Shown here: positions 12,982 to 47,361 of the stretch, piece by piece
Position numbering within the stretch: position 1 is the first letter of the stretch
Layout: the number at the start of each line of letters is the position of its first letter
DNA from: Candidatus Omnitrophota bacterium
Lineage (GTDB): Bacteria > Omnitrophota > Gorgyraeia > 1-14-0-20-64-10
Direction of reading: 5' to 3'
Length of the DNA: 64,000 nucleotides
NCBI GenBank assembly: GCA_023248155.1
Contig: JAHFFE010000001.1
Location: 148,873-212,872 of the forward strand
The notes under the pieces: model-generated
What the model saw: only the letters and a program-made list of their open reading frames with translations
The model's database searches: none
What the model was told of the DNA's origin: nothing
Made by a program: the position numbers and the translations under genes

Positions 12982-13361
12982 ATCCGCCTGCTGTTCTTGG
13001 CTAACCAGTCGGCGACATCCTGAACGGTTTTTTCCCGATCGATGAGGCTTATCAGCAGGTTAAAATTCTGATTCTCAGAGGAAGTCAGCGAATAACCATT
13101 TATTTCGAGAAAAATATCAAAACAGGTCCAGGCCATTCGCTTGTTTCCATCCACGAATGAATGGTTTCTTGCCAAAGACTCCAGAAGGGCCGCCGCTTTT
13201 TCAAAACAAGTTGGATAAAGGTCTTTTCCTCCAAAGGTTGCTTGGGGGCGTGCCAATGCCGAGCGCAACAATCCATCATCTCGAATTCCAGCCGATCCGC
13301 CGGTTTCTTCGAGAATCTTTTTATAGATCCAGAGGACTTGGCGATAGCCAAGATAATTCAT
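12978..13361 (-). CDS. doc: type II toxin Doc (Fic/Doc family)
   Basis: Fic motif HSFVDGNKRMAW; 127 aa; paired with an upstream small RHH gene, overlapping it by 4 nt. Confidence 0.85.
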   Translation of the reverse strand: MNYLGYRQVLWIYKKILEETGGSAGIRDDGLLRSALARPQATFGGKDLYPTCFEKAAALLESLARNHSFVDGNKRMAWTCFDIFLEINGYSLTSSENQNFNLLISLIDREKTVQDVADWLAKNSRRI

Positions 13362-13576
13362 TTAGCAAGACGTTTTAATAACGGAAGATTGCGCTGAATG
13401 GACTGATCGACCACTCGGCGGAATTCCGCGGTAATCACATCATTGGAAAACTGCGCGTCCAGCAAGTGAATCGCTTCTTCCAGCAATTTCGATTGCGGAA
13501 TCCGGCTTTGCTCAGAGAGACGCTTCAGCGTCCTGACTTCTTTGGCGCCCAGCTTGGTTGAGTATTTAATCTGCAC
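13358..13576 (-). CDS. ribbon-helix-helix (CopG/Phd-like) antitoxin
   Basis: 72 aa with an RHH-like N-terminus; GTG start with a GGAGG RBS; immediately upstream of and overlapping doc. Confidence 0.65.
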   Translation of the reverse strand: MQIKYSTKLGAKEVRTLKRLSEQSRIPQSKLLEEAIHLLDAQFSNDVITAEFRRVVDQSIQRNLPLLKRLAK

Positions 13577-13597
13577 GGGTTTTGTCCTCCAAAGTCA

Positions 13598-13626
13598 ATA
13601 ATACCTGACAAAACATGCTTAGTCAA
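13598..13626 (-). promoter_or_regulatory. sigma70 promoter of the RHH-doc operon
   Basis: Minus strand reads TTGACT, 17 nt, TATTAT, then the GGAGG RBS and GTG start; a second TTGACT copy overlaps the -10 region and is a possible autoregulation operator. Confidence 0.5.
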
Positions 13627-13638
13627 GACTTTTACTGA

Positions 13639-16600: not shown

Positions 16601-19600
16601 ACGGCGGTTCCCAGCAAGCTGTCAAAACCGCGGTTCCCTTCACGGATTTCTCTTTGCTGGTAGGTTGTAAACAGTTCCAGCAGTCTTGCGATGGAAGGAA
16701 GAAGAGAAACCGAATTCGTTTGCGCGAACAGAAAATCAGCTGCTTCCAGCCGTTCCACAACGTTTCCATTTAACTGATCAATCAATTGTTGCGCGCGCTC
16801 GATCGTAAGAACGGGTTTGGCGCCGGATTCAGATCGGGGATCTTTTATTCCGCGAATAAGAATGGGTGGTTGAGGCCAGCCGGCTTCTCCGCGGGCTTTA
16901 TTTTCACGGACAATTAAATCTCTGTAACGATGCTGTTGGAGAGTGTCTTTACTCAGACCAAGCCGATCCGCCAAAGCGTCTAGTTCAGTGGTTTCCCCCG
17001 GATGTTCGTGAAGCATCTGTATAATTTGCTGATGATTTCTCTGCCACCGGGCATTTCGACCCGATTCTTCCAGTCCGGCGGATGTTTTATCGGGGGGCAG
17101 AACTGTGCGGGAAGGTGAGAAATCAACAACCGGGCCCCTATCCTTGGGGAGTTCCTGTTCGATCTGTTTCGCGGCTTCTGAGAAAAGATGCTCGAGTTCA
17201 TCCGCGGCCGATAAATCAAGAGATTCTTGCAAAACGGGGTAAGCTCTTTGCCAAACCAACCGGGCGCTGCGAAAATCCCCGAGAGGATCTTGTTCCGGGA
17301 ACCGCCTTTTCAAATCATCGAGGAACCGGTTAAATGTCTGGTCGGCGGCATCGCGCAGCACCAGATTATGAAACAACAGCAAAACCGTCCAGACCTCATT
17401 CATCGTGAAAGAAGCTCCCCGGTTGGCGCGCCGCTCTATTTCCTGAACGGCCAGCATCGTCGAGTCTCCGTCGTGGGCGCTTTCGGCGAAGAACTCCACC
17501 GCGTCTCGCGGGGGAACAATCTGCACTCTCCAGATTTTCTCGCTCCGCAGAAGCTTCGCATTGTCGGTTTCCCAGAAAATCGCTGTGTAGCCATCGGACG
17601 GTTTTTCTCTCGATAAAATGGCGCGGAACCGATCCGTGATCTCGAGGCGGACTTCCAGCGCGGCGAACGCCTCATGAAGTTTCTGAGTTTTTCTTAAGGA
17701 TCCCGACAAATCTTCCGGCAGAATCTTGTTGAGCGTTTGTGAGGAAATAGATGCCACGCCGTCTTCAACTGTAAATTGGACTTCTTTCCGGCCGTCTTTT
17801 TTGCGGGGGCCCCCGCCTCTCAAGCCTGCCGCGATGGTTTCCAGCAAGACGGGGATAATCGAGTTGACATCAGCGGCAACTGCTTCTTCTGATTCGTCAG
17901 CTTTTTCTGAATTACCGATTTGAACCTTCGTTAATTTCGTTTCAGCCAATTTTTCCGGCAGCGCTTGATTAATGCCAGCCAACAGCTCTTTCCTGTTGGA
18001 AAGGAAAGATTGGCTGGGCGAGCCCCCAAACAGCCGCGCGGCCTCGCGCTGAGTCAGTTGAATGTCTCCTTCTCGATTTTCCGCTACCAGCGCGGCCACC
18101 AGGCGGGCCGCCAGATCATCCGGGGTTTCTTCCAACCCGGAGGTGGCCTGTTTCAGCAGAGTCAGCGCGGCGGCGAACTGGCGTTCCTCATCGGTTCCGA
18201 TCCGGCTGAATATAATTCCATTGGCGATTGCTCCTGCGATGAGCGGGTCCGCATGAAAATGGGAGATGAGTTCCGAAGAAAGAGCCTCTCGAATTAAACC
18301 GATTGCCGGAGCAGGACCCAAGGCAACTGCCAATCGATGCACGACGCTGCCCGCCAGAACGGTTCTTTGTGGAATGACTTCGGGAATAGTTCCCGTCAGA
18401 TAAGGCGCCAGCGCTGCGGCCATGAACCGGCCGATCTCTTGCGCAACTTCTGCATTGTCATAGCCGAGCGCTTTCACGCGTTTTTCCAGTGCCGGTTCGC
18501 TTAAGAGTTGTTCCACTTGTAGTTCGGTGGTGGTCGGTTGAAAACGCATTCCCTTCAACTCTCGGCCTTTATATTCATAATGCTTACCATTATCCGTTGA
18601 GGTAGTAACGCGGCCTACCTCAAGAAATCCAAGGCTGCGTGAGACGGGTCTGCCGTTAGCAGCCAGATCACCGCTGATTCCCGGTCCAAAATAGAAAAAG
18701 GCCGCATTTTGTACGCCATGAATTGTTCCGATGGCGCTGAGTTCTCCCAACAGAGAGGCCCGTCCTCGGTTGTAAACGGAAACAACAGCGCTGGCTTTTC
18801 CACCCAGCCGTGCTGAGAGCTTTTCTTGAAGAACCGCGCTCAACGAGTAATGATCAAACGCCGGCAGGTAAGGGGCCGGCTGCGGATTTCCGGTTTCTCC
18901 GTCGGATGCTTCATCATTGACGGCCGCAACAATCGAAACAACCACCCGGCTTAACCGATCGCCGGACAATCCCGTGTCGTCGACCATTTGGGCAATCTGA
19001 TTAACGAGCGCAGCAACAATCAGTTCCGGATTTTTATTGGGATCCAATGTTCCGCCGGTGGTCGACCATTTTTGCATTGGCGGAGCAGTGCGGCGCTCCA
19101 CCTTGTTGTCGGGCCCAGAGAGTGCGACCGAAAATCCTTCCCGTGTGATATCGACACCGACGGCGTAGCGCTTGTTTCCATAAGCGGCCCGAATTTCAAC
19201 CGCTTCCGGGCTCAATTTTTTAGGCGGCGGAGATGGCGGCACAGGATTTCTGAATACAAAAACGCGGCGCGTACCCTCGCCCGGCGCGTAAGTTTCTTCC
19301 GCTAACGAAAAGAGTCCTTCACGGTATGCCCGCCTTAGCAACGGGGTCCCCATCTTTCCACCCGCTTTTTTTCCGGCCGCGGCAGCGGCGGATTGATCTT
19401 TATCCAATTGCCCGAACAGTTCTCGGACCAAGTCCATTGGGTCATCAGCCGGCTGCGATTCGCCCAGCGATTGTTCAAGCAGTTCTTTGAGTGAGAAAAA
19501 ATCCTTTGCCTGGTCCTCAAGCACCGCCCTTAACTCCGGGCCGTTCCATGTCAGTGTGACGCGGGTGTTGAGTTGCGGCTGATATCCGTAGGCGTGCTGA

Positions 19601-20154
19601 TTTGTATTGTTGATAATTTCGGCAAGGTAGAGCGTAACAGATGCTTTTGCGACGGGAAGGGATTTCTCACCCAGTGCTTCTACCAATAATTTCTGAATTT
19701 GTCCCAGAGTAAGATCTCCGGGAATAATTAATTGCCGCGGAGCGATATCAATCCAGGTGGTCTTTGGCTGGTCGGGCCTGTCGCTGACTTCAACGGAATA
19801 GTCCATGTCGGGCGCGGAACTTCCAAAAAGCTCAACCAGCGCTTTTTCTAGTGGGGCAGGGGAAATAAAGAAAACTGCCGCTTGGGTATCTCCCACTTGT
19901 TTGTACAGACGATAAATGACCGTTCCGTCGGTGGGAACATAGCTCAGAAGCTGATCAAAGGAAGCGTTGGGATTTGTTTGTTCCTCCGCGCCGGCAGCAG
20001 GGGAGAGTTTTTTCTCGAGCGCGGATTGTGCAGGCCCTTCAATGGTTTGCCGCAACATCTGATTCGATGCCGGCAGGAATGCGCTGCCCGATCCTTCGCC
20101 GGAAAAGCAAAGAATCAGTATCGCCGCGATCAAATTTTGAAAAGTTTTATTCAT
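13639..20154 (-). CDS. giant secreted multidomain protein (2171 aa): signal peptide, ROK/actin-like ATPase domain, possible DUF89-like domain, C-terminal NAGPA-like phosphodiester glycosidase domain
   Basis: N-terminal signal peptide MNKTFQNLIAAILILCFSG. Residues ~300-580 resemble a ROK/BadF sugar-kinase ATPase fold (AVGVDITREGF...GPGISGDL...LGFLEVGRV). C-terminal residues ~1800-2000 resemble NAGPA/DUF2233 (RTRWDPNTTYAAFSALGRTGDNQLIFLSLVG...AILLGGSMDV). Confidence 0.7.
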   Translation of the reverse strand: MNKTFQNLIAAILILCFSGEGSGSAFLPASNQMLRQTIEGPAQSALEKKLSPAAGAEEQTNPNASFDQLLSYVPTDGTVIYRLYKQVGDTQAAVFFISPAPLEKALVELFGSSAPDMDYSVEVSDRPDQPKTTWIDIAPRQLIIPGDLTLGQIQKLLVEALGEKSLPVAKASVTLYLAEIINNTNQHAYGYQPQLNTRVTLTWNGPELRAVLEDQAKDFFSLKELLEQSLGESQPADDPMDLVRELFGQLDKDQSAAAAAGKKAGGKMGTPLLRRAYREGLFSLAEETYAPGEGTRRVFVFRNPVPPSPPPKKLSPEAVEIRAAYGNKRYAVGVDITREGFSVALSGPDNKVERRTAPPMQKWSTTGGTLDPNKNPELIVAALVNQIAQMVDDTGLSGDRLSRVVVSIVAAVNDEASDGETGNPQPAPYLPAFDHYSLSAVLQEKLSARLGGKASAVVSVYNRGRASLLGELSAIGTIHGVQNAAFFYFGPGISGDLAANGRPVSRSLGFLEVGRVTTSTDNGKHYEYKGRELKGMRFQPTTTELQVEQLLSEPALEKRVKALGYDNAEVAQEIGRFMAAALAPYLTGTIPEVIPQRTVLAGSVVHRLAVALGPAPAIGLIREALSSELISHFHADPLIAGAIANGIIFSRIGTDEERQFAAALTLLKQATSGLEETPDDLAARLVAALVAENREGDIQLTQREAARLFGGSPSQSFLSNRKELLAGINQALPEKLAETKLTKVQIGNSEKADESEEAVAADVNSIIPVLLETIAAGLRGGGPRKKDGRKEVQFTVEDGVASISSQTLNKILPEDLSGSLRKTQKLHEAFAALEVRLEITDRFRAILSREKPSDGYTAIFWETDNAKLLRSEKIWRVQIVPPRDAVEFFAESAHDGDSTMLAVQEIERRANRGASFTMNEVWTVLLLFHNLVLRDAADQTFNRFLDDLKRRFPEQDPLGDFRSARLVWQRAYPVLQESLDLSAADELEHLFSEAAKQIEQELPKDRGPVVDFSPSRTVLPPDKTSAGLEESGRNARWQRNHQQIIQMLHEHPGETTELDALADRLGLSKDTLQQHRYRDLIVRENKARGEAGWPQPPILIRGIKDPRSESGAKPVLTIERAQQLIDQLNGNVVERLEAADFLFAQTNSVSLLPSIARLLELFTTYQQREIREGNRGFDSLLGTAVQKFSPDQNIVGFWNAIRPVLREAKPADGRPVNIPQLYQDKLKQFEPMLLEGAAPAKTAAEILRLAFVRDGQIDPRISPFLDQSPTEDAQEKDIRWVKAFLALMAAPPQEKTALPPLSVSEYNAGPFLRNEISEEILRDYVENEWIAALEKTLRGAAEQITRQQPSAPVTAEDLGLKQIQSLMRSLSYAEDSAGQRLFPNLSESEIYRWSYRDLPRLLVPLISPSLSRAHIPAQLLEQALANPLSFSNESGNRAAAAAIRTLLQNQPETFTDNPVKLRRNPGKKLLPWLRLAIALNLIDYSQPALAREIEQAGGVMHYVLPRMGTDFSEALGGERFIHSFIADILKPGQSLVHITDNNAEIAGSLKLAELLLSVNPTLTISMIVKVDNGVMNDASLDDARRLLEKQPIYEKLRQYQAIGRFRLIPGARSHGTPLNRLTPEAVSAIRDAGVVLSQGEANTWNLNGLAKPLIYLGLRLKWLTGIENIFGVAPDPERPPAFIKIDGTQGAYFQNPFGTLPNVPRVTIRQTVLAQNPEMTAGVVLADPKPLRDSAYGETRTVSIERPDRTLTGRAVLIHPAKTLIRQRLNPQVINGSWEWKGLRRLTKTQQPGDPLMGIIDKPSSWNNLSLPLDAEPIFASNSLQTNFWEPNGFLIIDGKLVAIPGVRQAEEPWVFVLEAADSGKTGLRRLKLTEGVPQTDGIREAVAGPVLVRDGKSVASKIRHYPTEGGAANADADLSEGAYANRTRWDPNTTYAAFSALGRTGDNQLIFLSLVGQPETGQKQASVEDVTEAMIKSGAVEAILLGGSMDVQQWAVDDGTVPVILGRHNNAPHDSLRNLNAAIVVYTNPSAGQEETVSAGDTQDRALAQLSVLYSPTSAAPESTVLVFENPETFDLIPMALQWGWRVAILSDGAQADALRSLLAQMRVPRERYAIGYLEASNLLDNPTLRLISIQNREQGLRQLGLNPDDLPSPVALALDAVQNFLESMA

Positions 20155-20175
20155 CGGTTTTTCAATGATGGATAT

Positions 20176-20214
20176 AAAAACCCTCCTCTGTTTATGGGTG
20201 AGAGAAGGGTTTTT
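20176..20214 (-). terminator. terminator-like hairpin in the leader of the giant gene
   Basis: AAAAACCCTCCTC - 13-nt loop - GAGAAGGGTTTTT with A/T flanks, about 20 nt upstream of the start codon. Confidence 0.4.
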
Positions 20215-20229
20215 GCGTACATAAAATAG

Positions 20230-20249
20230 TATCGTCGATTTAGACGATA
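20230..20249. promoter_or_regulatory. perfect palindrome TATCGTC-N6-GACGATA in the AT-rich leader, a possible operator
   Basis: Seen directly: tatcgtcgatttagacgata sits within an 80-nt stretch of below 30% GC. Confidence 0.3.
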
Positions 20250-20297
20250 AAAATCAAGTTAAAATAATATAAGATTATAACTATGCTAACATTTAGA

Positions 20298-20693
20298 TTA
20301 ATCGGCCAGCGTGTAAAGCGGTTCGGGATCAAATGCCTGGCAAAAATTGTATAATTCGCGGAAATCATCGATGCAGTCAGTCTCGGTTTTGCGCAGCAGG
20401 GAAGCCTCGACCAGCGAAAAAACAATCGCCCCAAAATCGTCAGTGCGTTCAAGCCCCCAATAGGCGAGTACCTCGGCCGCCAACGGGCCAAATTGATCCA
20501 GCGCATAGAGGCGCAACCCCTGCGCCAGCTCCTGTCCGGTAATGTGGCGCGGCTCCGACAATTGACCGACGGTATATTGCAGGCCGGCCATCACGAAATA
20601 GTAGGCATCGGGTTTGAAGCGGGGGTTTTTTTGGCACAGCTTTTCCACCTGGCGGACCAATGCCTGAGTCGGAGAAAGCACCGCGTGGCTCAT
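20298..20693 (-). CDS. hypothetical protein
   Basis: 131-aa ORF with codon usage like its neighbours; no motif recognised. Confidence 0.45.
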   Translation of the reverse strand: MSHAVLSPTQALVRQVEKLCQKNPRFKPDAYYFVMAGLQYTVGQLSEPRHITGQELAQGLRLYALDQFGPLAAEVLAYWGLERTDDFGAIVFSLVEASLLRKTETDCIDDFRELYNFCQAFDPEPLYTLAD

Positions 20694-20694
20694 C

Positions 20695-21231
20695 TTATTT
20701 CCACCGGATCAAGTTAAGGCCCCACAAAATGCCGATGATCGATTTCGCGTCGATAATCTTGCCTTTCTGCACCATTTGAACCGCTTTTCGGATCGGCGTA
20801 ACGGCGGTAACGATCGACTCGTCGACATCCATCGCGATCCGTTTCGAGAGCGGTCTCAATTTCTCGGCGACGAACAGCGTCATCCGCTCCGTGGAAATGC
20901 CGGGCGCCGGGTAAAAATCGATCAGACGCGTCCATTTTGAGGCGGTATAACCTGTTTCTTCGGCCAGTTCGCGCTTGGCGCAGGCCAGCATCGATTCGCC
21001 TGGTTCGCTGGTTCCGGCCGGGATTTCAAGAATCTCTTTGTTGATGGCATGGCGGAACTGGCTGATTAAAAGCAGTTCGTTTTTATTGATCAGCGGAAGG
21101 ATGACTACCGACGGCGGATGGTGGATCGTCTCGCGTTTGTAGACTAACCCCGACTCTTTTCGAAAAGTATCCAGCATCAGTTTCGCGACGCGGCCGCGAT
21201 ATAAAGTTTTTGTGGCTAATCGCTTAACCAT
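20695..21231 (-). CDS. NUDIX hydrolase (ADP-ribose pyrophosphatase-like)
   Basis: Nudix box GTSEPGESMLACAKRELAEETGY. Confidence 0.85.
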   Translation of the reverse strand: MVKRLATKTLYRGRVAKLMLDTFRKESGLVYKRETIHHPPSVVILPLINKNELLLISQFRHAINKEILEIPAGTSEPGESMLACAKRELAEETGYTASKWTRLIDFYPAPGISTERMTLFVAEKLRPLSKRIAMDVDESIVTAVTPIRKAVQMVQKGKIIDAKSIIGILWGLNLIRWK

Positions 21232-21292
21232 AGCGGCTAGTATAACACGAACCGACCCGGTGGTGTTTTGTGGACAGGGTCGGCGTTGGAAC

Positions 21293-21300
21293 TGTATAAT
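21293..21300 (+). promoter_or_regulatory. extended -10 element (TGTATAAT) upstream of nuoJ
   Basis: tgtataat lies about 55 nt upstream of the nuoJ start. Confidence 0.35.
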
Positions 21301-37581: not shown

Positions 37582-38832
37582 ATGTCTGAACGATTTCTTT
37601 TAAGAGCAATAAGCTCCCTGCTTATTTTCAGTTTTGCGTTTGGTTTTCCATCAATGGCGATGGCCGAGGAATCGGTCGCCGAACTTAAAGAAGAGCTGGC
37701 CCAAATGCGCCATTCTATGGAGCGGATGCAGGCCCGCCTCGACGAATTAGAAAGAAAAGCAGCTGCGCCACAGCCGGAGATTGTTTCTTCTCCAGTCAGC
37801 CGGCCGGCGCCTGCGGGTCAAATAGGGGCCTCGATGCCGGAGATCGGTGTCGTGGCTGATTTTGTGGCGACTGCTTCCGAGAGTAAATCCGATCTGGAAG
37901 GAAACAACCGCCTGGCTGCGCGCGAGGTTGAAATAGTCGTCGGTGGGTATGTTGATCCGTACTCGCGGATGGATGCCACGCTCGCGTTTTCCGATTTTGA
38001 GGAAGCGGCACTGGAAGAAGCCTACCTTACCCGATGGGGTTTACCGTTTGATTTGACGGCACGCGTCGGGCGGTTCTCACCGCGGGCCGGAAAACAGGCC
38101 GCATTGCACCGCGATTCGCTGGAAACAGTCGATGAACCGTTGGTGATCCGCAACTTTTTCGGCGCCGAAGGGTACCGGCGGTCCGGAGTCGATTTCGCGC
38201 GCGCGCTCGAAGGACCGGCTGGTCTTTTTATTGAGCCGAGCGTTGGCATATTGGAAGGCGGTATCGGAGAAGGCGGCAATCTGTTCGGTGAAACGCGCCG
38301 CCGGCCGACCTTCATCAGCCATCTGAAAACGGCCAAAGATTTGACCGATTCGTCAAATCTGGAGCTTGGCCTAACCCATATGGTTGGTTCCAAAGATGCT
38401 GACGCGGCGTTTGAAGTGAATATGCTGGGCGCTGACGCCACGTACATCAATCGGCTCAACGGCGTCAACCGGCTGAAACTGCAAAGCGAGTTTTTTCTGC
38501 AGCACCGCGATGAGGCATTCAGCATCGACGACACGACCGGCGAAAATACGCAGTTCGACCGCAACCCGTGGGGTGCGTACGCGCTGGCCGAATACAAATT
38601 CGCGCCGCGCTGGGCGATCGGCGCGCGTGCCGATCATGCGCGCATCGTCGACGCTGCGGCACCCCGGCATGCCGATCAGGGATACAGCGGGTTTCTGACA
38701 TTTTTCCAGAGCGAGTGGGCCCGCTGGCGTTTGCAATTCCGCCATGAAGACCGGGCCAGTGAGAAAGCCGAAGATGCGGTTTTTTTGCAGGGTACATTCG
38801 CACTGGGCACGCACAAGCACAAACTTCAGTAG
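37582..38832 (+). CDS. putative outer-membrane porin-like protein
   Basis: Signal peptide, an N-terminal coiled-coil segment, then an alternating beta-strand-like pattern; 416 aa. Confidence 0.45.
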   Translation: MSERFLLRAISSLLIFSFAFGFPSMAMAEESVAELKEELAQMRHSMERMQARLDELERKAAAPQPEIVSSPVSRPAPAGQIGASMPEIGVVADFVATASESKSDLEGNNRLAAREVEIVVGGYVDPYSRMDATLAFSDFEEAALEEAYLTRWGLPFDLTARVGRFSPRAGKQAALHRDSLETVDEPLVIRNFFGAEGYRRSGVDFARALEGPAGLFIEPSVGILEGGIGEGGNLFGETRRRPTFISHLKTAKDLTDSSNLELGLTHMVGSKDADAAFEVNMLGADATYINRLNGVNRLKLQSEFFLQHRDEAFSIDDTTGENTQFDRNPWGAYALAEYKFAPRWAIGARADHARIVDAAAPRHADQGYSGFLTFFQSEWARWRLQFRHEDRASEKAEDAVFLQGTFALGTHKHKLQ

Positions 38833-38851
38833 AAAAAAGGAAATCATTCAA

Positions 38852-39799
38852 ATGAAAACAAAAGAAATAACGAGATTGCTTCCGGCGTCGTTTTTCCTCG
38901 CCGTCGCAATGACCATATTCGTAATAGTCTCTCAGGCGTCAGCGGCTCAACCGTTGCGCGTGGTCACCACGCTTTCCACATTCGCGGACCTTGTCAAACA
39001 GGTGGGGGGCGACGATGTCGAAGTGGCTTATGTCGCGCCGCCGAAATTCAACCCGCATTTTATCGAAGCGCGCCCCAGTGATGTTTTAAAAATAAAGAAA
39101 GCCGATCTGTTTGTCCACGCCGGACTGGATCTTGAGGCGTGGCGTGATCCGCTGCTGGATGCGGCCGGCAATCCAAACGCGTTTCCGGGACAGAGCGGCA
39201 GTCTGGATCTTTCCAAAGGAATCGCCTTGCTGGAGGTGCCGGACAAGCCGTTGAACCGGCTGATGGGCGATATCCATCTGTATGGAAACCCGCATTACTG
39301 GCTCGATCCGGAAAACGGGCGCCTGATGGCTAAAACGATTTGCGACAAGTTGTGCGAGATGGATCCGGCGCATTGTGATCCATACCATGCCCGCCTCGAG
39401 AGTTTTCTGAAAAAGCTGGATCAAAAAGAAACCGAATGGAAACCGTTGCTGGCGGTGCTGCACGGTAAAGAACTGCTGGCCTACCATAACGAGTGGCCTT
39501 ACTTGGCCAGTTATGCCGGTTTTGAAACCCGACAATTTCTAGAACCGAAGCCGGGGATTCCGCCTTCGCCCAAACAGCTGGCTTTTTTACAGAACTACAT
39601 CGCGCAAAAACAGATTAAAGCGATTATCCAGCCGACCTATTACCCGAAAGATAATTCCGGCCGGCTGGCTCAGCGGACCGGGGCCAGGCTGGTGGTCATT
39701 TGCCAGAATGTGGGCGAGCTTCCTCAGGCGTCCGATTATCTCTTGATGATCGATTATGATTTGCGGCAAATCGCCGCGACAATGGAGGCAAAACCATGA
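38852..39799 (+). CDS. metal (Zn/Mn) ABC transporter substrate-binding protein, ZnuA/TroA family
   Basis: TroA-like fold with conserved His ligand regions (FNPHFIEARPSDV...DIHLYGNPHYWLDP); signal peptide; ATG at 38852 with an RBS. Confidence 0.8.
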   Translation: MKTKEITRLLPASFFLAVAMTIFVIVSQASAAQPLRVVTTLSTFADLVKQVGGDDVEVAYVAPPKFNPHFIEARPSDVLKIKKADLFVHAGLDLEAWRDPLLDAAGNPNAFPGQSGSLDLSKGIALLEVPDKPLNRLMGDIHLYGNPHYWLDPENGRLMAKTICDKLCEMDPAHCDPYHARLESFLKKLDQKETEWKPLLAVLHGKELLAYHNEWPYLASYAGFETRQFLEPKPGIPPSPKQLAFLQNYIAQKQIKAIIQPTYYPKDNSGRLAQRTGARLVVICQNVGELPQASDYLLMIDYDLRQIAATMEAKP

Positions 39800-40614
39800 A
39801 TGATTTTTTTCATCTGATGGCAGCGCCATTCGCCGCCTGTTTGGTGCTGACCGGCATTCACGCCTATCTGGGACTGCACGTGATTGAGCGCGGCGTGATC
39901 TTCGTCGATCTGGCGCTGGCGCAGATTGCCGCGCTGGGGGCAACGCTGGGGTTTTTGCTGGGGTTTGGCCTGCACAGCAGTGCCGGCTATCTGTTCGCGC
40001 TCGGGTTTACATTTTTAGGTGCTGTGATCTTTGCGCTGACCCGGTTTCGCGAGGAAAAAATTCCGCACGAAGCGATCATCGGCGTGGTTTACGCGGTTGC
40101 TTCCGCCGCCGTGATTCTGGTGTTAAGCCGCGCGCCCGAAGGCGGAGAAGAATTGAAAGAACTGCTGGTCGGACATCTATTGCTGGTTGGCTGGCCCGAG
40201 GTTTTTAAAGTGGCTGTTATTTACGGCGGCATCGGCCTGCTGCACTGGCTGTTTAGAAAACCGCTGTTGGCCATTTCTAGAAATCCGGAACAGGCATTCG
40301 CCAACGGAATACCGGTGCGCGCATGGGATCTGTTTTTCTATGTCACTTTTGGTGTTGTAGTGACTAGTTCCGTTGCCATGGGAGGCGTGTTGCTGGTCTT
40401 CAGTTTTTTAATCGTGCCGGCAATTTGCGGTGCGTTGCTGGCGCAGTCGGTGGGCCGCCGGCTCTGCGTTGGATGGGGGATCGGCGCGTTAGCCAGCATG
40501 CTGGGCATTGTTGTTTCGTATTATGCTGATTTGCCGACGGGCGCCTCAATCGTTTGTTTGTTTGGGCTGGTTCTTGTAGTTGTGGGACTGCTTCACCGCT
40601 TGCGCTTGATATAA
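39796..40614 (+). CDS. metal ABC transporter permease, ZnuB/TroCD family
   Basis: 272 aa with 8-9 TM helices; start overlaps the substrate-binding-protein gene stop. Confidence 0.8.
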   Translation: MNDFFHLMAAPFAACLVLTGIHAYLGLHVIERGVIFVDLALAQIAALGATLGFLLGFGLHSSAGYLFALGFTFLGAVIFALTRFREEKIPHEAIIGVVYAVASAAVILVLSRAPEGGEELKELLVGHLLLVGWPEVFKVAVIYGGIGLLHWLFRKPLLAISRNPEQAFANGIPVRAWDLFFYVTFGVVVTSSVAMGGVLLVFSFLIVPAICGALLAQSVGRRLCVGWGIGALASMLGIVVSYYADLPTGASIVCLFGLVLVVVGLLHRLRLI

Positions 40615-40621: not shown

Positions 40622-41056
40622 ATGAATGGGTTTCAAAGAGCGGGGATAGCCGCGCTGGCGGCACTGTTTGTTTTTTCCGGTTTTCCGGTTATGGAGCGGA
40701 GCATTCCGGCGGCCGAGGCTAAGCCGGTTGTTTCAGGTCATGACGGTTGCTGCGGTTCCGGCATGAAAAACTGCTGCTGTTCCGGGACGGAAAACTGCGG
40801 AACTTGCTCCGGGCATGCGGCGAAGAAAACGATCGAAGCATCCTCAGAAACGATCGGTCCTCATTGGGCGGCTTGTCCCGGTCCCTCTTCAAAGAAATTA
40901 GCGCTGATTACCGGCTTGCGCGAAATCGCTCCTCCCGCTTCTGTTTCGTTCAGTGAATTGCCTTGTCAGCATGCTCCCAATAAATCAGAGCGCCATTCTC
41001 CGGACTCGCTCGCTTTCTCTCCCGATACGCCTCCTCCTCGAAAAGATTCCGTCTAA
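40622..41056 (+). CDS. secreted Cys-rich putative metal-binding protein
   Basis: Signal-peptide-like N-terminus; 15 Cys in a 45-aa block (GHDGCCGSGMKNCCCSGTENCGTCSGH). Confidence 0.5.
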   Translation: MNGFQRAGIAALAALFVFSGFPVMERSIPAAEAKPVVSGHDGCCGSGMKNCCCSGTENCGTCSGHAAKKTIEASSETIGPHWAACPGPSSKKLALITGLREIAPPASVSFSELPCQHAPNKSERHSPDSLAFSPDTPPPRKDSV

Positions 41057-41224
41057 AAATAAGATTTTTCCGGCCACGGGTCCTGTCGCTCGGGGACACT
41101 CTCCGCCGTCCGTGCTCGCTTCGCTGCGCGCGTGGCGGCAGAGGCCTCTCCCGCCCGCGTCACCCCTGGCCTAGAATTTGTGATTTCGATTTCTTAACCG
41201 GTTTTATTCTTGGGGGATTTTTCA

Positions 41225-42250
41225 ATGCATCGTAAATGGATTGTTTTTATTATTTTAGCGGCGGCAGGGCTGACGGAGCTTCCTTCACCGGCGCAGGCTT
41301 CATGCGGTTCTGCTTCATGTCCGGCGGACACTTCGTCCTGGGGTGATCGCAAAGCGGGCGATGTCGAGCTGGGTTATCAGTTTGAATATGTCGAGCAGGA
41401 TCAGCATCAGATTGGCCGGCATAGCGCTGCGTTCCGTGAAATCCGCGGGCACCATGACGAAGAATTTACCGTCAGCCGCGTGCATCGGCTCTCGGCTTCC
41501 GCTGAATTGACCGACCGGTTGGGCGTTGATTTCAAACTGCCGTTTGTGAACCGGTCACACGCGCATATCCATCGCCATGGCGGCGCCGATATCCTCGAAA
41601 GCTGGGACTTGTCCGGTCTGGGTGATTTGGCAATGACGGTGCGGTATGATTTCTGGAAACCGGAAAATCGTCGGCTGCCAACGCTAACGGCCATTGCCGG
41701 CGGCGAGTTTCCGACAGGTTCTTATAACGAGAAAAATTCCGATGGAGATGTCGCGGAACTGGGCATACAACCCGGCAGCCATTCAACCGATTTCATTGTC
41801 GGGTTGGCGTCGCGGCAGATGTTCCAGGCAAAACGGCTGACGGGCGGCACTGGCCCGCTCCCGATTTTTTTCAGCGTGATCGGTCAGCTTAACGGTAAAG
41901 GAACCGACGATTACCGTTTGGGCGACACGCTGCAGGTGACGATGGGAACTTCCTATCCGGTGTTTCCGAAAGTGGGCCTGCTGGGGCAGATCAATTTTCT
42001 GCTCAGGGGCCGCGACGATAAGGGGAGCACCCGCGAAGAGATTCAGAAAACCGGCGGCGAGTTTTTATATCTTTCCCCGGGGCTGGAGTTCCGCCCGAAT
42101 GAAAACTGGCGCATTTATGGCCTGGCGCAGATCCCGGTTTATCAGCGCGTCAATCTGATTCAGACGGTATCCGATTACAATCTGCTGTTCGGAGCGACCT
42201 ACCGGTTCCATAATCTGCTCGGTTCAAGAAGATCAAAGAAGCCGTTATAA
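41225..42250 (+). CDS. outer-membrane beta-barrel protein (MetA-pathway/transporter-like)
   Basis: Signal peptide, alternating amphipathic strands, and a terminal-strand-like LLFGATYRF, followed by a 13-aa extension encoded by the direct repeat. Confidence 0.55.
   Translation: MHRKWIVFIILAAAGLTELPSPAQASCGSASCPADTSSWGDRKAGDVELGYQFEYVEQDQHQIGRHSAAFREIRGHHDEEFTVSRVHRLSASAELTDRLGVDFKLPFVNRSHAHIHRHGGADILESWDLSGLGDLAMTVRYDFWKPENRRLPTLTAIAGGEFPTGSYNEKNSDGDVAELGIQPGSHSTDFIVGLASRQMFQAKRLTGGTGPLPIFFSVIGQLNGKGTDDYRLGDTLQVTMGTSYPVFPKVGLLGQINFLLRGRDDKGSTREEIQKTGGEFLYLSPGLEFRPNENWRIYGLAQIPVYQRVNLIQTVSDYNLLFGATYRFHNLLGSRRSKKPL
42206..42240 (+). repeat. direct repeat copy A (TTCCnnAATCTGCTnGGTTCAAGAAGATC...)
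   Basis: Matches 43543-43577 at about 33 of 38 positions, with a 23-nt core carrying one mismatch. Confidence 0.8.
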
Positions 42251-42272
42251 TGCCAAATGTTATAATAAAACC

Positions 42273-43526
42273 GTGAGCGATTACTCAACAAGACCTCTTG
42301 TTGCCATCGGAGCAATCTGTTTTTTGTTTGCTTTGCTTGTTTGGCCGGTGATTTGGACCGGTCGCCAGACAACTCCGGAAGCCTACGATCAAGAAACCTA
42401 TCATCTTCCGGCGATTCGGTTTCTGATTGACCAAGAATCCAATTTCCGTGAATTTCCTTGCCCCAACCTGCCAGGTTACCATCTAGTAATGGCAACTGCC
42501 TCACGCTTCGTGGGCGAGGGACGGTGGCTTCAATGGATCAACAGTTTTTTTGGATTGGCGGTTGTCCTTATTGTTTTTGCCTATGCGACAACGGTCATTG
42601 AACTATGGACAGCATTTGTTTTGGTTCTGCCGTTGCTCTGTTCGAGCTATCTGCTCAAGGGTTCCATATGGCTCATGACCGATAATGCAGCATGGCTGAT
42701 GGTTGTTCTTGCCTTGGGTGATGCTCTAACCGCACGCCGACTTACGCCCTGGCGGTGTATCGGGTGGGGGGCATTAGTAATCGGCGCAGTTTTGGTTCGA
42801 CAAACCCATATCTGGCTGGTCATTCCAATGGCTTATGCTTTTTTGGGGGGAATTTCAGAACAAAAAGGTGCTGTTCGCGCACAATCTGTTACGGCAGGTC
42901 TCATGAGTATCTTGGCGCTTTTCTTGCTGCTTGCAGCTGCCTGGAATCTCTGGGGAGGGCCGGTCCCACCTGCTTTTGTTGCCATACATTGGGTGCATAT
43001 AAACCTCACCTCGATTACGCTTGCTATGGCACTGCTTGGGTTCTTTGGATTGTTCTATCCAAAACCAAAAAACAGCCTGCCATGGTGGGGGGGATTCATT
43101 GGATTGCTGACTGCTTTGTTATGGCCTACGGCGTATGATATTGCGCAGGGACGGTGGGGGGGCACTGTCTGGGAGCTTGCCAGGCGAGTGCCAACCATCG
43201 GCCGCCGGTCGTTATTATTTCCACCGTTGGCGATAATGGGAGGCATTCTGCTGGCCTCCTGGGGATGCGCAATCACCGCTGATCCATTACGGCGACGTCG
43301 AGCTATTTTGCTTTGTGTTGCTTTTATGAGCTGGCTGGTTGTTCAACCGCTCAACTCCCAAACATTTCAGCGCTATGCCGAACCCATGGTTTTGATTCTG
43401 CTCATTTGGTTTTCGGCATTTTGCGTTTTTGAAAAAAAACCATCCAATGATAAATGGCACTGGTTGAGTCCACTTTTGCTGGGTGTGATGCAATTAGCAG
43501 TAACGTTACTGTCCATCTGGAAATGA
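42273..43526 (+). CDS. GT-C fold membrane glycosyltransferase (GT39/ArnT/PMT-like)
   Basis: About 11 TM helices; first-loop AYDQETYHLP resembles the DE motif of the ArnT/PMT family; GTG start 6 nt after a TATAAT; GC visibly lower (about 47%). Confidence 0.55.
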   Translation: MSDYSTRPLVAIGAICFLFALLVWPVIWTGRQTTPEAYDQETYHLPAIRFLIDQESNFREFPCPNLPGYHLVMATASRFVGEGRWLQWINSFFGLAVVLIVFAYATTVIELWTAFVLVLPLLCSSYLLKGSIWLMTDNAAWLMVVLALGDALTARRLTPWRCIGWGALVIGAVLVRQTHIWLVIPMAYAFLGGISEQKGAVRAQSVTAGLMSILALFLLLAAAWNLWGGPVPPAFVAIHWVHINLTSITLAMALLGFFGLFYPKPKNSLPWWGGFIGLLTALLWPTAYDIAQGRWGGTVWELARRVPTIGRRSLLFPPLAIMGGILLASWGCAITADPLRRRRAILLCVAFMSWLVVQPLNSQTFQRYAEPMVLILLIWFSAFCVFEKKPSNDKWHWLSPLLLGVMQLAVTLLSIWK

Positions 43527-43542
43527 GATTGTCTTTTTAGTG

Positions 43543-43577
43543 TTCCGCAATCTGCTGGGTTCAAGAAGATCGAGGGA
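43543..43577 (+). repeat. direct repeat copy B
   Basis: See copy A; in one frame this copy encodes ...VFRNLLGSRRSRE*, mirroring the ...RFHNLLGSRRSKKPL* encoded at copy A. Confidence 0.8.
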
Positions 43578-43598
43578 ATAGAATAAATTAAAACAAAA

Positions 43599-44297
43599 AT
43601 GAATATATTGCCAAACTCGATTTCATTGGAATCAGCGCTGTTATTAGGCACCGGACTTGTGCTGGGCATCCGCCACGCGTTTGACCGCGATCATGTGGCG
43701 GCTGTGACCCATTTTGTTTCGCTAGAGCCGAATCCGCTTAAGAGCGCCTGGTTCGGCCTTCGGTGGGCGCTGGGGCATGCGATCTCGGTGGCGTTGTTAG
43801 GCGTCCTGATTTTATGGTTCAACCTGAAATTTGATCCGTCCTTTGAGCGGACCGCCGAACTGTTCATCGGGATTGCATTGGTAGCGCTGGGCATCTGGCG
43901 GCTGTTTCTTCTCTGGCAGGAGCGCCAACATTCCCATGAACATCTGCATCCCGAAAATAAGAGCAAGCATAGCCACAGCCATTCGCATGAGCCGGGCAGT
44001 CCGCATGTCCATTGGCTGGCACCCACGCTGGTCGGCATCATGCATGGCGCCGCTGGAACGGTGGAAATATTTGTTTTAATTCCGCTGACGTTCATGGCCA
44101 GCCGTTGGCTGGCTGCGTCATACATTCTGCTTTTCAGCGCCGGTTGCGCATTTTCGATGACCCTTTACGGATACCTGGCCGGCCATTTTTACCACTGCAC
44201 CAACCAAGCCGGCCGTAAAATCTACCAGGTTCTTGTGGTGCTGACCTCGCTGTCGGGGTTTGTGCTGGGAGCCGTCTGGATTCTAAAGAACATCTAA
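43599..44297 (+). CDS. NicO/RcnA family nickel/cobalt transporter
   Basis: HAFDRDH (HxxDxDH) signature in TM1-2 and a His-rich loop HSHEHLHPENKSKHSHSHSHEPGSPHVH. Confidence 0.75.
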   Translation: MNILPNSISLESALLLGTGLVLGIRHAFDRDHVAAVTHFVSLEPNPLKSAWFGLRWALGHAISVALLGVLILWFNLKFDPSFERTAELFIGIALVALGIWRLFLLWQERQHSHEHLHPENKSKHSHSHSHEPGSPHVHWLAPTLVGIMHGAAGTVEIFVLIPLTFMASRWLAASYILLFSAGCAFSMTLYGYLAGHFYHCTNQAGRKIYQVLVVLTSLSGFVLGAVWILKNI

Positions 44298-44350: not shown

Positions 44351-44423
44351 GCCGGCGTGGCTCAATGGTAGAGCAGCTCATTCGTAATGAGCGGGTTGGA
44401 GGTTCGATTCCTCTCGCCGGCTT
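44351..44423 (+). tRNA. tRNA-Thr (anticodon CGU)
   Basis: Cloverleaf folded by hand: 7-bp acceptor GCCGGCG/CGCCGGC, D-arm GCUC/GAGC, anticodon stem GCUCA/UGAGC with loop UUCGUAA, T-arm GGAGG-UUCGAUU-CCUCU; followed by a T-run. Confidence 0.9.
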
Positions 44424-44458
44424 TTTTATTTGAACCCTGTCTGCAGGGAGGTGTTCTT

Positions 44459-44914
44459 TTGAATAAATTATTTGGTTTGAAACCATGGTTTTTGAGCAAA
44501 CAAACCCAAATTGTCATCCTCTGTTGCATAATCGGATTATTTTCAATAGTGGTCGCATTATATTTCTGTATGGACAAAATTAACAAGGTCACCTATCCCG
44601 AATACAAACAGTTGATTGCTCAAGGACAGTTGATAGAAGGCACCGTGATTAATTCTGAGTATCAAGTCATGATGATAGAGTCAAATATTTCCGGAACTCA
44701 AGCGAGTCCTGTTTTTTGGGTAACGATGGAATATTTGGATCCGGAAACAAAAGAAGAAAGAACTCTTCTTGAAAACTGGCATCCAATGTGGAGAAACCAC
44801 CTGCAAAAGGGGGACAAAGTTCACCTTTATTATTTTCCGTCAAACAAACGTGTCAAAATATCATCCAAAAATAATTATCTGTTTGATAGAGAATTTGATT
44901 TGTCGAGAAAGTAG
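44459..44914 (+). CDS. hypothetical membrane-anchored protein on a low-GC insert
   Basis: About 37% GC against about 60% in the surrounding sequence; single N-terminal TM helix; sits immediately 3' of the tRNA-Thr. Confidence 0.45.
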   Translation: MNKLFGLKPWFLSKQTQIVILCCIIGLFSIVVALYFCMDKINKVTYPEYKQLIAQGQLIEGTVINSEYQVMMIESNISGTQASPVFWVTMEYLDPETKEERTLLENWHPMWRNHLQKGDKVHLYYFPSNKRVKISSKNNYLFDREFDLSRK

Positions 44915-44926
44915 ATTAGATATCTT

Positions 44927-45496: not shown

Positions 45497-45558
45497 TATA
45501 GATTAATTTTGTGCTATAATCCATGTAGCTGCATTTGTAGCTACATACAGGAGGCATC

Positions 45559-45834
45559 ATGGTCCAGTTCGTGAATGTTCGTCAATTGAAAAATCAGCTC
45601 TCGGAAGTGATCCGCCGAAGCCGAAAAGGCGATGTGGTTGTGACATCGCGCGGCCGGCCGACCGCCATCCTGCACGCCATCTGTGAAGAAGACCTGGAGG
45701 ATTATCTGATCACGAATTCGCCGCGTTTTAAAAAAAGCCTGGAATATTCCTATCGCGAATATCAGGTTAAAGGAGGGGCCTCTCTCCAGTCGCTGTTAAA
45801 AAAAGAGGCTGCCGGCAAGCGTGTTCGTCGTTGA
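45559..45834 (+). CDS. type II antitoxin, Phd/YefM family
   Basis: 91 aa; N-terminal VNVRQLKNQLSEVIRRSRKGDVVVTSRGRPTAIL typical of Phd/YefM. Confidence 0.8.
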   Translation: MVQFVNVRQLKNQLSEVIRRSRKGDVVVTSRGRPTAILHAICEEDLEDYLITNSPRFKKSLEYSYREYQVKGGASLQSLLKKEAAGKRVRR

Positions 45835-46084
45835 GTTTACCCCCGCCGCTGTTCGTGACTTAAAGCGAATAGATCCAGGAGTCCGCAAAAAGCTTTTGGG
45901 AGAGACTCGGGTGCTGGAGCCGGATCCGTTTCCAAAAGGAACTCCGCAAATTAAATTATTGGCAGGAATCCGTCCGCCCCATTTCAGGCTCCGTTCCGGC
46001 GATTATCGAATTGTCTACAGGATTGAGAGAAAGACGGTTGTCGTAGTTCGTATCGCGCATCGCAGGGAGGTCTACCGGTTTTAA
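45821..46084 (+). CDS. type II toxin, RelE/ParE family
   Basis: 87 aa; overlaps the antitoxin gene by 14 nt; C-terminal YRIVYRIERKTVVVVRIAHRREVY pattern. Confidence 0.8.
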   Translation: MFVVEFTPAAVRDLKRIDPGVRKKLLGETRVLEPDPFPKGTPQIKLLAGIRPPHFRLRSGDYRIVYRIERKTVVVVRIAHRREVYRF

Positions 46085-46115
46085 AACAAGGCAATAGAGG
46101 AGATAAATTTGCAGT

Positions 46116-46823
46116 ATGGCCAAGAAACCGTCTAATGTAGAAGTCTGGTTGGAGCGGGAAACCTCTTTTACGCGCAGAGCGCTTGAAAGCGCCTCCAGAC
46201 ATTTCGACTCCAACGATGAGCTTACAGTGAATACGCTTGAAGCCGTCTACGGACAAGAAAACAGTTTCGGTATCTTGATGGGAAAACGCGGCTCAACCAA
46301 TCGAGCTGGCCATTTTCAGTTCGAGCCGCCTACTGCCAAACGGTACAGTTTAAATAGTTCAAAGGGGAACGATCAGCGCTTTGACATCGATCGCGCCGCT
46401 TCCGCAGCTGCAAGATACTTAAAAGACCTTAATAGCTGGTTCGGCGAGAGGACGAGTTTAGGGGGAGGGGTGTACACTGTCCCTGTCAAAAGCATCTCAG
46501 AACGAAAGAAATTCGTTCTTGGAGCTTTCAATGCCGGCGAAGGGCGCGTTGCCCGCGCTCAACATCTTGCCCAGGAGGATGGGAGGGATCCCCGTTTGTG
46601 GAGTGAGGTGGTGAACTACATTGCAGCGGCCAAAGCTCTACCGAAGAAACAGGAGGAGACTAGGGCATACGTCGAGATGATTCCCCTCTATGAAACGGAG
46701 TTCGCCAAGAAGTCACCAGCCAATAAGACTTTGAAAAAGAAAGGGATCAGAAAGGGGAAGTACCTTTGTACCGACGGGCATTGGGTGACAATTGATGGCA
46801 GGCCGGTATTCATCTGTGATTAA
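46116..46823 (+). CDS. lytic transglycosylase (SLT domain) protein
   Basis: EAVYGQENSFG catalytic-Glu region and a GHFQFEP (GLMQ-like) motif. Confidence 0.65.
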   Translation: MAKKPSNVEVWLERETSFTRRALESASRHFDSNDELTVNTLEAVYGQENSFGILMGKRGSTNRAGHFQFEPPTAKRYSLNSSKGNDQRFDIDRAASAAARYLKDLNSWFGERTSLGGGVYTVPVKSISERKKFVLGAFNAGEGRVARAQHLAQEDGRDPRLWSEVVNYIAAAKALPKKQEETRAYVEMIPLYETEFAKKSPANKTLKKKGIRKGKYLCTDGHWVTIDGRPVFICD

Positions 46824-47268
46824 GGGGCGCCAGCCATTGTTTTATCGAATCCTGACGTTTCTGGTTGTCTGGCTCGTTTTTTGTTCAACTGCTTTTTCGA
46901 TCCGTGTCGGAGGATTGCAGGAAATCTATGAGACACCGATTCCCGCTGAGATTCGCAGAAACTTCAACCGCATTCTTCAGATCCGCACCGCATCCCCTGA
47001 AGCCACTTTGACAGTTCTCAATGGAGAGAAATTCCTCGATATTTACGCGAAGAAATTCCTCGTCGTCGGCATGGAGCCCAACGAATTCGGCGGCGTTTGG
47101 GCGGTCATCGCCATCGAAGGCAATCTAAAGGATGCCTTCCTGCTGTGGCTGTATGATGTTGATCGCGATGAATATGATTTGCGCAACGTTGAGAAGCTCC
47201 CCGACCACTTGGAGGAAGAACTTGTTCGGAAACTTCGAGATCCGGCCTATCGAAAGTATTGGTTGTAG
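46792..47268 (+). CDS. hypothetical protein
   Basis: 158-aa ORF with an N-terminal TM helix; start uncertain. Confidence 0.4.
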   Translation: MMAGRYSSVIKGRQPLFYRILTFLVVWLVFCSTAFSIRVGGLQEIYETPIPAEIRRNFNRILQIRTASPEATLTVLNGEKFLDIYAKKFLVVGMEPNEFGGVWAVIAIEGNLKDAFLLWLYDVDRDEYDLRNVEKLPDHLEEELVRKLRDPAYRKYWL

Positions 47269-47361
47269 GCGCCCTGCTAATGTGGGGCTAACAGAAGAGG
47301 ACGAATGCGGATGAAAGATGGGGTATCAGTCAGGAAACAAGGGCAATCAGAGAGAATAATC

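Follow-up and report, generated by a model that had tools for sequence, protein, structure and literature searches.

A glycosyltransferase gene inserted between direct repeats at the 3' end of an outer-membrane barrel gene in a Candidatus Omnitrophota bacterium

Contig JAHFFE010000001.1 of the Candidatus Omnitrophota bacterium assembly GCA_023248155.1 was analysed over 64,000 nucleotides (nt; positions 148,873 to 212,872 of the forward strand). This stretch is called the window below and all coordinates are counted from its first letter. On its + strand, genes coding for a porin-like protein of 416 amino acids (aa), a ZnuA-type binding protein, an ABC-3 permease, a cysteine-rich protein of 144 aa, an outer-membrane beta-barrel protein, a protein of 417 aa and a NicO transporter follow each other in this order and precede a tRNA-Thr gene (Table 1). 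The barrel gene is the last structural gene of a metal-uptake cluster composed of the porin, ZnuA, ABC-3, cysteine-rich and barrel genes. The 417-aa gene codes for a predicted glycosyltransferase of the GT-C fold and lies between two copies, A and B, of a direct repeat, copy A being part of the barrel gene end. An earlier reading of this DNA, made from its letters alone (the sequence-only reading), had taken the gene for a cassette inserted by site-specific recombination at the end of the barrel gene, or else for a duplication-mediated acquisition, with no integrase or transposase gene in its vicinity. Comparison with related genomes shows that the gene is an insertion and offers grounds to weigh the routes by which it may have entered.

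Table 1. Features at the insertion locus (window coordinates)
Feature	Coordinates	Strand	Remarks
ZnuA-type binding protein	38744-39799	+	
ABC-3 permease	39796-40614	+	
Outer-membrane beta-barrel gene, 341 aa	41225-42250	+	Phenol_MetA_deg / OMP_b-brl family (Pfam PF13557, PF13505); identical to P0001
Repeat copy A (core)	42205-42234	+	GTTCCATAATCTGCTCGGTTCAAGAAGATC; encodes F H N L L G S R R S, the barrel's own basic carboxy-terminal tail
A-tail	42235-42250	+	codons K K P L and TAA stop of the barrel gene; origin ambiguous, native or insert-derived
Two GTTATAAT (-10-like) motifs	42244-42266	+	copies at 42244-42251 and 42259-42266
Inserted glycosyltransferase gene, 417 aa	42273-43526	+	predicted GT-C fold; unnamed family distantly related to PMT_2
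Spacer, 15 nt	43527-43541	+	glycosyltransferase stop to copy B; right edge of inserted DNA, L001 empty-site homology starts at 43542
Repeat copy B (core)	43542-43571	+	GTTCCGCAATCTGCTGGGTTCAAGAAGATC; non-coding relic of the barrel gene end, in frame F R N L L G S R R S
B-tail and native barrel-NicO spacer	43572-43598	+	R E TAG; positional counterpart of the 26-bp L001 spacer
NicO / RcnA-like metal transporter	43599-44297	+	His-rich loop; Pfam PF03824; ancestral immediate neighbour of the barrel
tRNA-Thr (CGT)	44351-44422	+	ARAGORN, Rfam; conserved right-hand neighbour of NicO

The barrel-NicO junction with and without the insert

In the relative represented by contig L001 the stop codon of the barrel gene (product P0002, 88% identical to the window protein) is followed by 26 bp, the NicO gene (92% identical) and then the tRNA-Thr gene. 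A four-way alignment places the left flank and copy A of the window in line with L001 leftward, and copy B and the right flank in line with it rightward, the two overlapping in the repeat only. This collinearity of the right flank upholds the earlier interpretation of copy B as the stranded remnant of a gene end. No B-like sequence is found upstream of NicO in relative L018, where a GATase gene directly precedes NicO; copy B therefore derives from the barrel gene end and not from a NicO leader.

Adjacency of barrel and NicO genes, with spacers of 18-50 bp, extends to L005, L006 and L007 (70% barrel identity) and to L012, a Planctomycetia metagenome-assembled genome (59%). The unoccupied, attB-type site is therefore present in L001 and in these four more distant relatives. 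In L005, L006 and L007 the entire order porin-ZnuA-ABC-3-small protein-barrel-NicO-tRNA-Thr is kept, and NicO is followed by tRNA-Thr in L001, L005, L006 and L018. A search with the barrel protein found 169 homologues. The window NicO is 59% identical to its L005 orthologue; an exact look-up of the protein retrieved no recorded entry. Since barrel and NicO are neighbours in L001 and in relatives down to 59% barrel identity, the 417-aa gene was inserted, in this lineage, into a junction that relatives keep together with its short spacer.

The structure is not a product of misassembly because both junctions recur in a separately assembled, near-identical strain. Its 43-kb contig (L019), deposited independently in ENA, agrees with the window at 99.976% of positions along 12.7 kb and has the same barrel-glycosyltransferase-NicO structure; the three single-nucleotide differences lie outside the insert and the repeats. 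The left junction is reproduced also in L004, a contig of a separate Logan assembly. The locus provides in this way a well-documented single-gene gain in an uncultured, groundwater-type bacterium of the Planctomycetes-Verrucomicrobia-Chlamydiae group, with both junctions, the target relic and the empty site of a relative all visible. This placement goes with homologues labelled Omnitrophota or Planctomycetia.

Copies A and B are identical at 27 of 30 positions and their starts are 1337 bp apart, the spacing given by the sequence-only reading. The place of the repeat and the translations of both copies also stand as first written, while the earlier count of about 33 matches in 38 positions becomes 29/35 over the spans then used. 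The 23-nt core, with up to three mismatches allowed, occurs exactly twice in the window against zero expected from shuffled sequence, and A/B is the best direct repeat of the window once paralogous gene segments are excluded. All three mismatches are within the left 16 nt while the right 14 nt (GGTTCAAGAAGATC), the longest exact match, are identical. Two of them, CTC/CTG and TCA/TCG, alter the third position of a codon and leave the amino acid as it was. Copy A is read at the end of the barrel protein as ...YRFHNLLGSRRSKKPL and copy B, in one frame, as ...VFRNLLGSRRSRE, each up to a stop codon.

Similarity between the copies breaks off abruptly on either side, including to the left of B. Attempts to extend the duplication to the stop codons or through the intergenic spacer gave no significant similarity: right of ...GATC the A-tail and the B-tail are not significantly alike (p about 0.19). 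The A-tail resembles its counterpart in L001 at the edge of significance (p about 0.05), and the B-tail, orthologous to the L001 spacer by position, has yet diverged from it beyond significant similarity. The secure duplication is thus of 30 nt and may reach the stop codons (46 and 40 nt). Both copies stay in frame to a stop at a homologous place, ending in SKKPL and SRE, compared to SKGS in L001 and SKG in L002.

The single L001 copy helps to place the duplication in time. A and B agree at 27/30 positions and each of them is at 26/30 from L001. The L001 copy agrees with A at position 6 and with B at positions 7 and 31; AGA AGA is common to A and B, where L001 has AAG AGA and L002 has CGC CGG. 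Because the three copies are about equidistant, the duplication event is not recent. The data would be equally compatible with A and B having once been identical and with an origin of the two in different lineages.

A degenerate 29-nt pattern, TTCCNNAATCTGCTNGGTTCAARRAGATC, covers A, B and the L001 copy. It has no match in GTDB species genomes (596 Gb), JGI metagenome contigs or IMG/VR, collections that do not hold the source genome, and the repeat is therefore no widespread element. The intragenomic copy number refers to the 64-kb window. Folded as RNA, neither repeat copy gains stability over shuffled sequences, nor does the L001 junction; the z-scores are positive. A scan of the sequence with Rfam found tRNA alone. 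A role of the repeat as terminator or riboswitch was ruled out on these folds. A dispersed repeat of the repetitive extragenic palindromic (REP) type was rejected as well, since the 64 kb hold two copies, each of them homologous to the end of the barrel gene, and the z-scores of their folds are positive.

One claim of the sequence-only reading did not survive the comparison, namely that copy A supplies a 13-aa extension beyond a natural ...YRF end of the barrel. Among 120 homologues the closest ones end in ...YRFHNLLGSKRSKGS (P0002) and ...YRFHGLLGSRRSKG (P0003, 80% identical), and many of the more distant ones carry short basic tails after YRF (KAWGKR, QAWGKK or DTRRARTR, for example). As relatives with an empty site and many distant homologues end in such basic tails, the HNLLGSRRS tail is native to the barrel in this clade and not made by the insertion. 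The insert could have re-coded at most the last 4-5 codons (KKPL and stop).

The inserted gene and its product

The inserted DNA is of foreign composition. It has 49.2% GC, where the adjoining 5 kb on the left have 54.7% and the whole window has 55.0%; the drop noticed earlier is real, its first figures (47% against about 60%) being overstated. The contrast is clearer at third codon positions, where the GC content of the inserted gene (GC3, 0.483) is the lowest of 41 open reading frames (ORFs) of at least 200 aa, the other 40 averaging 0.659 (sd 0.051; z = -3.5). The neighbouring genes for membrane proteins have normal values (0.62 for the ABC-3 permease and 0.65 for NicO), and the dip is therefore not general to membrane-protein genes.

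Translation from the GTG at 42273 is backed by the amino termini of homologues, which conserve the upstream LF-LLVWP segment. The deposited gene call of 400 aa (P0121) begins at TTG 42324, 17 codons too late. The GTG is preceded by the tandem GTTATAAT motifs reported by the sequence-only reading. The second of them is an extended -10 element (TGTTATAAT) ending 6 nt before the start codon, a distance that would make the transcript leaderless or near-leaderless. GTTATAAT is found five times in the window, where 0.7 copies are expected, and one of these is the -10 element upstream of tRNA-Thr. A strict two-hexamer sigma-70 scan identified no full promoter at the glycosyltransferase start.

The distance from the barrel stop codon to the GTG is 22 nt and no terminator was found between the two genes. 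The glycosyltransferase gene would probably be transcribed by read-through from the metal-uptake operon together with initiation at its own -10 element. A cell-envelope glycosyltransferase would thus be placed inside a metal-uptake operon and probably be co-expressed with the outer-membrane barrel, in which case the cell surface could alter under metal limitation.

The 417-aa protein matches no Pfam or NCBIfam family at E <= 0.01, nor at E <= 1. A word-indexed search retrieved six homologues besides the protein itself, at 28-39% identity (38-39% for the nearest), while an exhaustive profile search gave 1612 representatives of clusters built at 50% identity, 838 of them with E <= 1e-30. The protein therefore belongs to a large unnamed family. 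Among 82 aligned members 20 match PF13231 PMT_2 (best E = 3.5e-11) and four match DIE2_ALG10; many members of this GT-C family are missed by current domain libraries.

A sequence-profile search of the Protein Data Bank (PDB) sequences found no match. A first structure model, from an alignment of seven sequences, reached a pLDDT of 61 and was replaced by an AlphaFold2 model built on the 82-member alignment (pLDDT 94.7, pTM 0.93). All of the first 14 PDB structures ranked by Foldseek are GT-C enzymes, headed by ArnT (5ezm and 5f15, E about 6e-4). ALG12, ALG3, AftA, Pmt4, ALG9, PglB, OST, EmbA/B, AftD and AftB come next, with PimE at ranks 18 and 47; the TM-scores are modest (0.3-0.57). The earlier assignment to the GT-C glycosyltransferases is confirmed by the modelled structure and by transitive homology through the PMT_2 matches of family members, outside any curated family.

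The predicted protein is an all-helical multi-pass membrane protein, like the GT-C enzymes ArnT (GT83), PMT (GT39), ALG3/9/12, PimE and AftA/AftB/Emb, for which a conserved acidic residue in the first extracytoplasmic loop after the first transmembrane helix is a mark. In the 82 sequences D39 is near-invariant (motif EA-DQ--YH-P) and lies in helix 35-53, right after transmembrane helix 1 (helix 8-29); a catalytic role can be proposed for it on that basis. The window protein differs from the GT-C enzymes in having no soluble periplasmic domain and no UbiA partner encoded in the window. It keeps every invariant or near-invariant residue of the family, D39 included, and the gene is thus intact and looks functional.

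The gene contexts of homologues are different: in L003, L008 and L009 the gene next upstream codes for a UbiA prenyltransferase, and the L010 homologue belongs to a GT4 cluster. These differing contexts and the low identity of the nearest homologue add to the signs of foreign origin. Such neighbours fit a polyprenyl-phosphate-sugar as the putative donor substrate. A similar pairing with a UbiA-family decaprenyl-phosphate phosphoribosyltransferase exists for the mycobacterial arabinosyltransferases. These four contigs have 60-73% GC and none is therefore a plausible source of the inserted gene. Searches of plasmids and phages with the glycosyltransferase by tblastn gave no match.

Possible routes of integration

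About 1.3 kb of foreign DNA entered right at the terminus of the barrel gene, the ancestral order being barrel-NicO-tRNA-Thr, and is now bordered by two versions of at least the last 10 codons of that gene. The cargo is a single gene, for a GT-C glycosyltransferase presumably of the polyprenyl-phosphate-sugar type, preceded by -10-like motifs, and nothing else. Reciprocal recombination of the Campbell type, as between attachment (att) sites, is put forward tentatively as the most likely integration event. Its partners would have been the end of the barrel gene on the chromosome and a stretch of about 30 nt resembling it (27/30) on the incoming, probably circular, DNA. Copy A would then be an attL-like hybrid through which the barrel frame runs on to a stop, and copy B an attR-like hybrid left non-coding before NicO. 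The exchange may have been carried out by a recombinase acting in trans, by one since lost, as in a decayed cis-mobilizable element (CIME), or by host recombination. An att-like exchange is favoured because the mismatches are confined to the 16 nt on the left, beside a perfect 14-nt block, because the edges of the repeat are sharp and the barrel frame is preserved, and because known elements, including CIMEs devoid of integrase, insert in gene 3' ends (PMC5704250).

There are well-described integrative elements that reside at the 3' end of a protein gene and rebuild that end from one of their flanking repeats, and CIMEs are decayed derivatives of such elements that keep attL and attR and have lost the integrase (PMC5704250). 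The insert resembles them in its cargo held between direct repeats, one of which keeps the 3' terminus of the target gene intact, in the empty site of relatives and in its foreign composition; like CIMEs, it has no integrase or transfer genes (PMC5704250). It differs from them in being 1.3 kb and one gene long, with no remnants of genes for integration or transfer and no known cognate integrase, in having no second element accreted, and in repeats that are 90% identical rather than identical. It would work as a cargo set between attL and attR where a gene ends, and is not filed as an integrative mobilizable element or a CIME because it contains neither an integrase nor integrase remnants. Small islets gained by horizontal transfer that retain a relic of the target site are a kind already known; the insert is a new member of it and is not surprising.

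A number of points weigh against the att-like exchange. As the sequence-only reading had remarked, recombinase genes are missing from the surroundings: Pfam and NCBIfam revealed no integrase, transposase or relaxase domain in any ORF scanned from 28.4 to 55.5 kb, and thus none within about 13 kb. With 22 nt before its only gene and 15 nt after it, the insert would be a decayed island only if the rest had been lost with great precision. On inspection the core shows no convincing inverted-arm architecture of a recombinase site, and its RNA fold is no stabler than shuffled sequence. Copies of the core were counted within the 64-kb window, and a second genomic copy is possible. The equidistance of A, B and the L001 copy is fitted equally well by a duplication in situ followed by divergence. 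Finally, the many gene-level replacements seen at this locus in close relatives have no flanking repeats, which points to general recombination and away from a dedicated site-specific system.

A less probable origin, to be added to those named by the sequence-only reading, is homology-facilitated illegitimate recombination (HFIR). Linear DNA would have been taken up from a related strain in which the glycosyltransferase gene already stood behind the barrel gene. The left crossover would have been homologous, inside the barrel gene, and the right join illegitimate, linking the donor sequence ...TTTTTAGT to a point some 40 nt short of where the recipient's barrel gene ends. Copy A would be the gene end of the donor and copy B the truncated original of the recipient. 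No mobile-element enzyme or circular intermediate is required, and HFIR is reportedly an established process in natural transformation. Two orthologous gene ends would be expected to run in frame to homologous stops, as both copies do, and the two synonymous differences, the abrupt end of similarity to the left of B and the mosaic nature of the locus in relatives (L018, L020, L021 and L002) speak for the same origin. HFIR products share with the insert the foreign DNA beside a homologous anchor gene, the lack of mobile-element functions and an abrupt second junction, here with a microhomology of a single G.

HFIR usually deletes recipient DNA, however, whereas a segment is duplicated here. It would also need an unsampled donor with a glycosyltransferase gene behind a barrel orthologue and a competence of the organism for DNA uptake, and it leaves the first insertion unexplained. 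The barrel gene has no mosaic signal. Sliding identity against L001, L002 and L005 gave no sign of a donor-derived segment in it, and its 3' part shows no drop or shift in identity to L001/L002; over the last 200 nt the identity to these two is 0.89-0.91, compared to 0.83 overall.

Duplication of the target during an illegitimate or repair-associated entry, by staggered breaks and fill-in or by template switching, is rated as unlikely, slightly below HFIR. About 30 nt of target would have been copied, the two copies being identical at first and diverging later, with KKPL and its stop read from the insert. Such an event would account for the sharp 30-nt block of similarity, with sequences to its right not significantly alike, and for the AGA AGA of A and B, which is expected of sister copies made within one lineage. 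The 10% divergence of the copies is compatible with an event later than the split from L001, whose coding DNA differs by 13-17% from that of the window. Against this stands the absence of terminal inverted repeats, and the target duplications of ordinary transposases are far shorter than 30 nt. The core of relic B is, moreover, much better kept than the adjacent non-coding spacer, which is easier to understand if the tails already differed, and the A-tail is slightly closer to the L001 tail than by chance (p about 0.05).

It is improbable that the insert is a minimal single-gene cassette without recombinase, made of promoter and ORF, for which the repeat of about 30 nt serves as attachment site and which is moved in trans by a recombinase encoded elsewhere in the genome. 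If true, it would reveal a system that targets gene 3' ends and is distinct from integrons, from integrative mobile elements exploiting Xer (IMEX) and from classical genomic islands. The locus changes no general concept as it stands and would gain in interest were the repeat to turn out to serve repeatedly for attachment. IMEX and pdif modules, with sites of about 28 bp, are likewise small recombinase-less cargoes bounded by repeats of about 30 nt. In the present case the site is a gene end and not the replication terminus, and the locus sits on a monotonic stretch of the cumulative GC skew. No similar repeat-bounded islets were found elsewhere in the window or at other strain-specific indels.

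Several known classes of element were tried and set aside. The core is not dif-like, has a poor match to the XerD arm and is not palindromic (by inspection against the E. coli dif consensus), and a Xer/dif reading was rejected. An insertion sequence or transposon was rejected because there are no transposase and no inverted repeats at the insert ends and because the duplication is of at least 30 nt, against 2-14 bp. An integron cassette was rejected for want of an attC site and an integrase, with 15 nt from the stop codon to copy B and a fold no stabler than shuffled sequence.

Ancestral presence of the glycosyltransferase gene at the locus, with loss in the relatives by deletion between the repeats, is very unlikely. 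Recombination of A with B would leave one hybrid copy, as found in L001; the gene is missing, however, at four depths (L001 at 88%, L002 at 80%, L005-L007 at 70% and L012 at 59% barrel identity), which parsimony disfavours, its GC3 is a strong outlier, and an earlier insertion would still be needed to make the repeats. An assembly artefact, a chance repeat or a dispersed REP-like element, conceivable for a metagenome-derived contig whose repeat copies were sought within 64 kb, can hardly be maintained when the junctions recur in two other assemblies, the 14-nt longest exact match is too short to mislead a k-mer assembler, no third copy exists in the window (none being expected by chance) or matches in the three large collections, and the repeat region folds no better than shuffled RNA.

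Variation and other features around the locus

The genes next to NicO vary strongly among close relatives. NicO orthologues at least 90% identical have very different left neighbours in L018, L020 and L021. The entire HMA-DUF2946-porin-ZnuA-ABC-3-Cys-barrel cluster is missing from L018 (3266-3346). L020 (595-1700) and L021 code for a different barrel, 28% identical, which ends in ...SWHF before the stop and shares the signal-peptide start MHRK-IVFI; a terminator hairpin comes next, and NicO is there split into two ORFs. In L002 (2820-2917) the 80%-identical barrel gene is directly followed by tRNA-Thr, without NicO. The barrel/NicO boundary is, to judge by these gene orders, a recurrent recombination breakpoint.

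Variation extends beyond tRNA-Thr(CGT), where the DNA of close relatives differs immediately after the tRNA gene. The window has there an ORF of 175 aa with 38% GC (44423-44926), while L018 (4120-5975) has an ORF of 82 aa, a transglutaminase-core protein and an ORF of 137 aa. Between L005 and L006 the sequence is the same as far as the tRNA, and all relationship ends after 7771, where L006 has Imm_superinfect and HTH genes. The tRNA gene looks like an integration hotspot; neither an integrase nor a repeat of the tRNA 3' end was found after it in the window. Further to the right, between the DUF4202 and dienelactone hydrolase genes (45500-47354), lie a Phd/YefM-ParE toxin-antitoxin pair, an SLT lytic transglycosylase gene and an ORF of 158 aa. 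The two bordering genes are only about 20 bp apart in L018, and the segment is another strain-specific islet, one with no flanking direct repeats. Two strain-specific indels to the right of the tRNA gene both lack flanking repeats.

The cysteine-rich protein of the uptake cluster (40622-41056) is secreted-looking, has the stretch GHDGCCGSGMKNCCCSGTENCGTCSGH and matches no Pfam or NCBIfam family. By tblastn its gene is kept between those of the ABC-3 permease and the barrel in L001 (65% identity) and L002 (56%); L005 has an unaligned ORF of 142 aa at this place. The protein may be a metal-binding or metallochaperone part of the cluster.

Between the cysteine-rich and barrel genes, a GC-rich segment of about 110 nt (41062-41180) forms one long imperfect hairpin of -55.9 kcal/mol (z = -2.8, no shuffled sequence being as stable) with the palindromic centre GGCGGCAGAGGCCTCTCCCGCC. 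It is present once in the window and missing from the orthologous L001 spacer. It could be an insertion resembling a miniature inverted-repeat transposable element or a REP sequence, or a strong terminator or attenuator.

At the scale of the whole window, the cumulative GC skew has its minimum near 9-9.5 kb and rises steadily afterwards, and gene orientation changes from - to + at about 21.3 kb. The region of about 9000-21300 may hold a skew switch like that of a replication origin.

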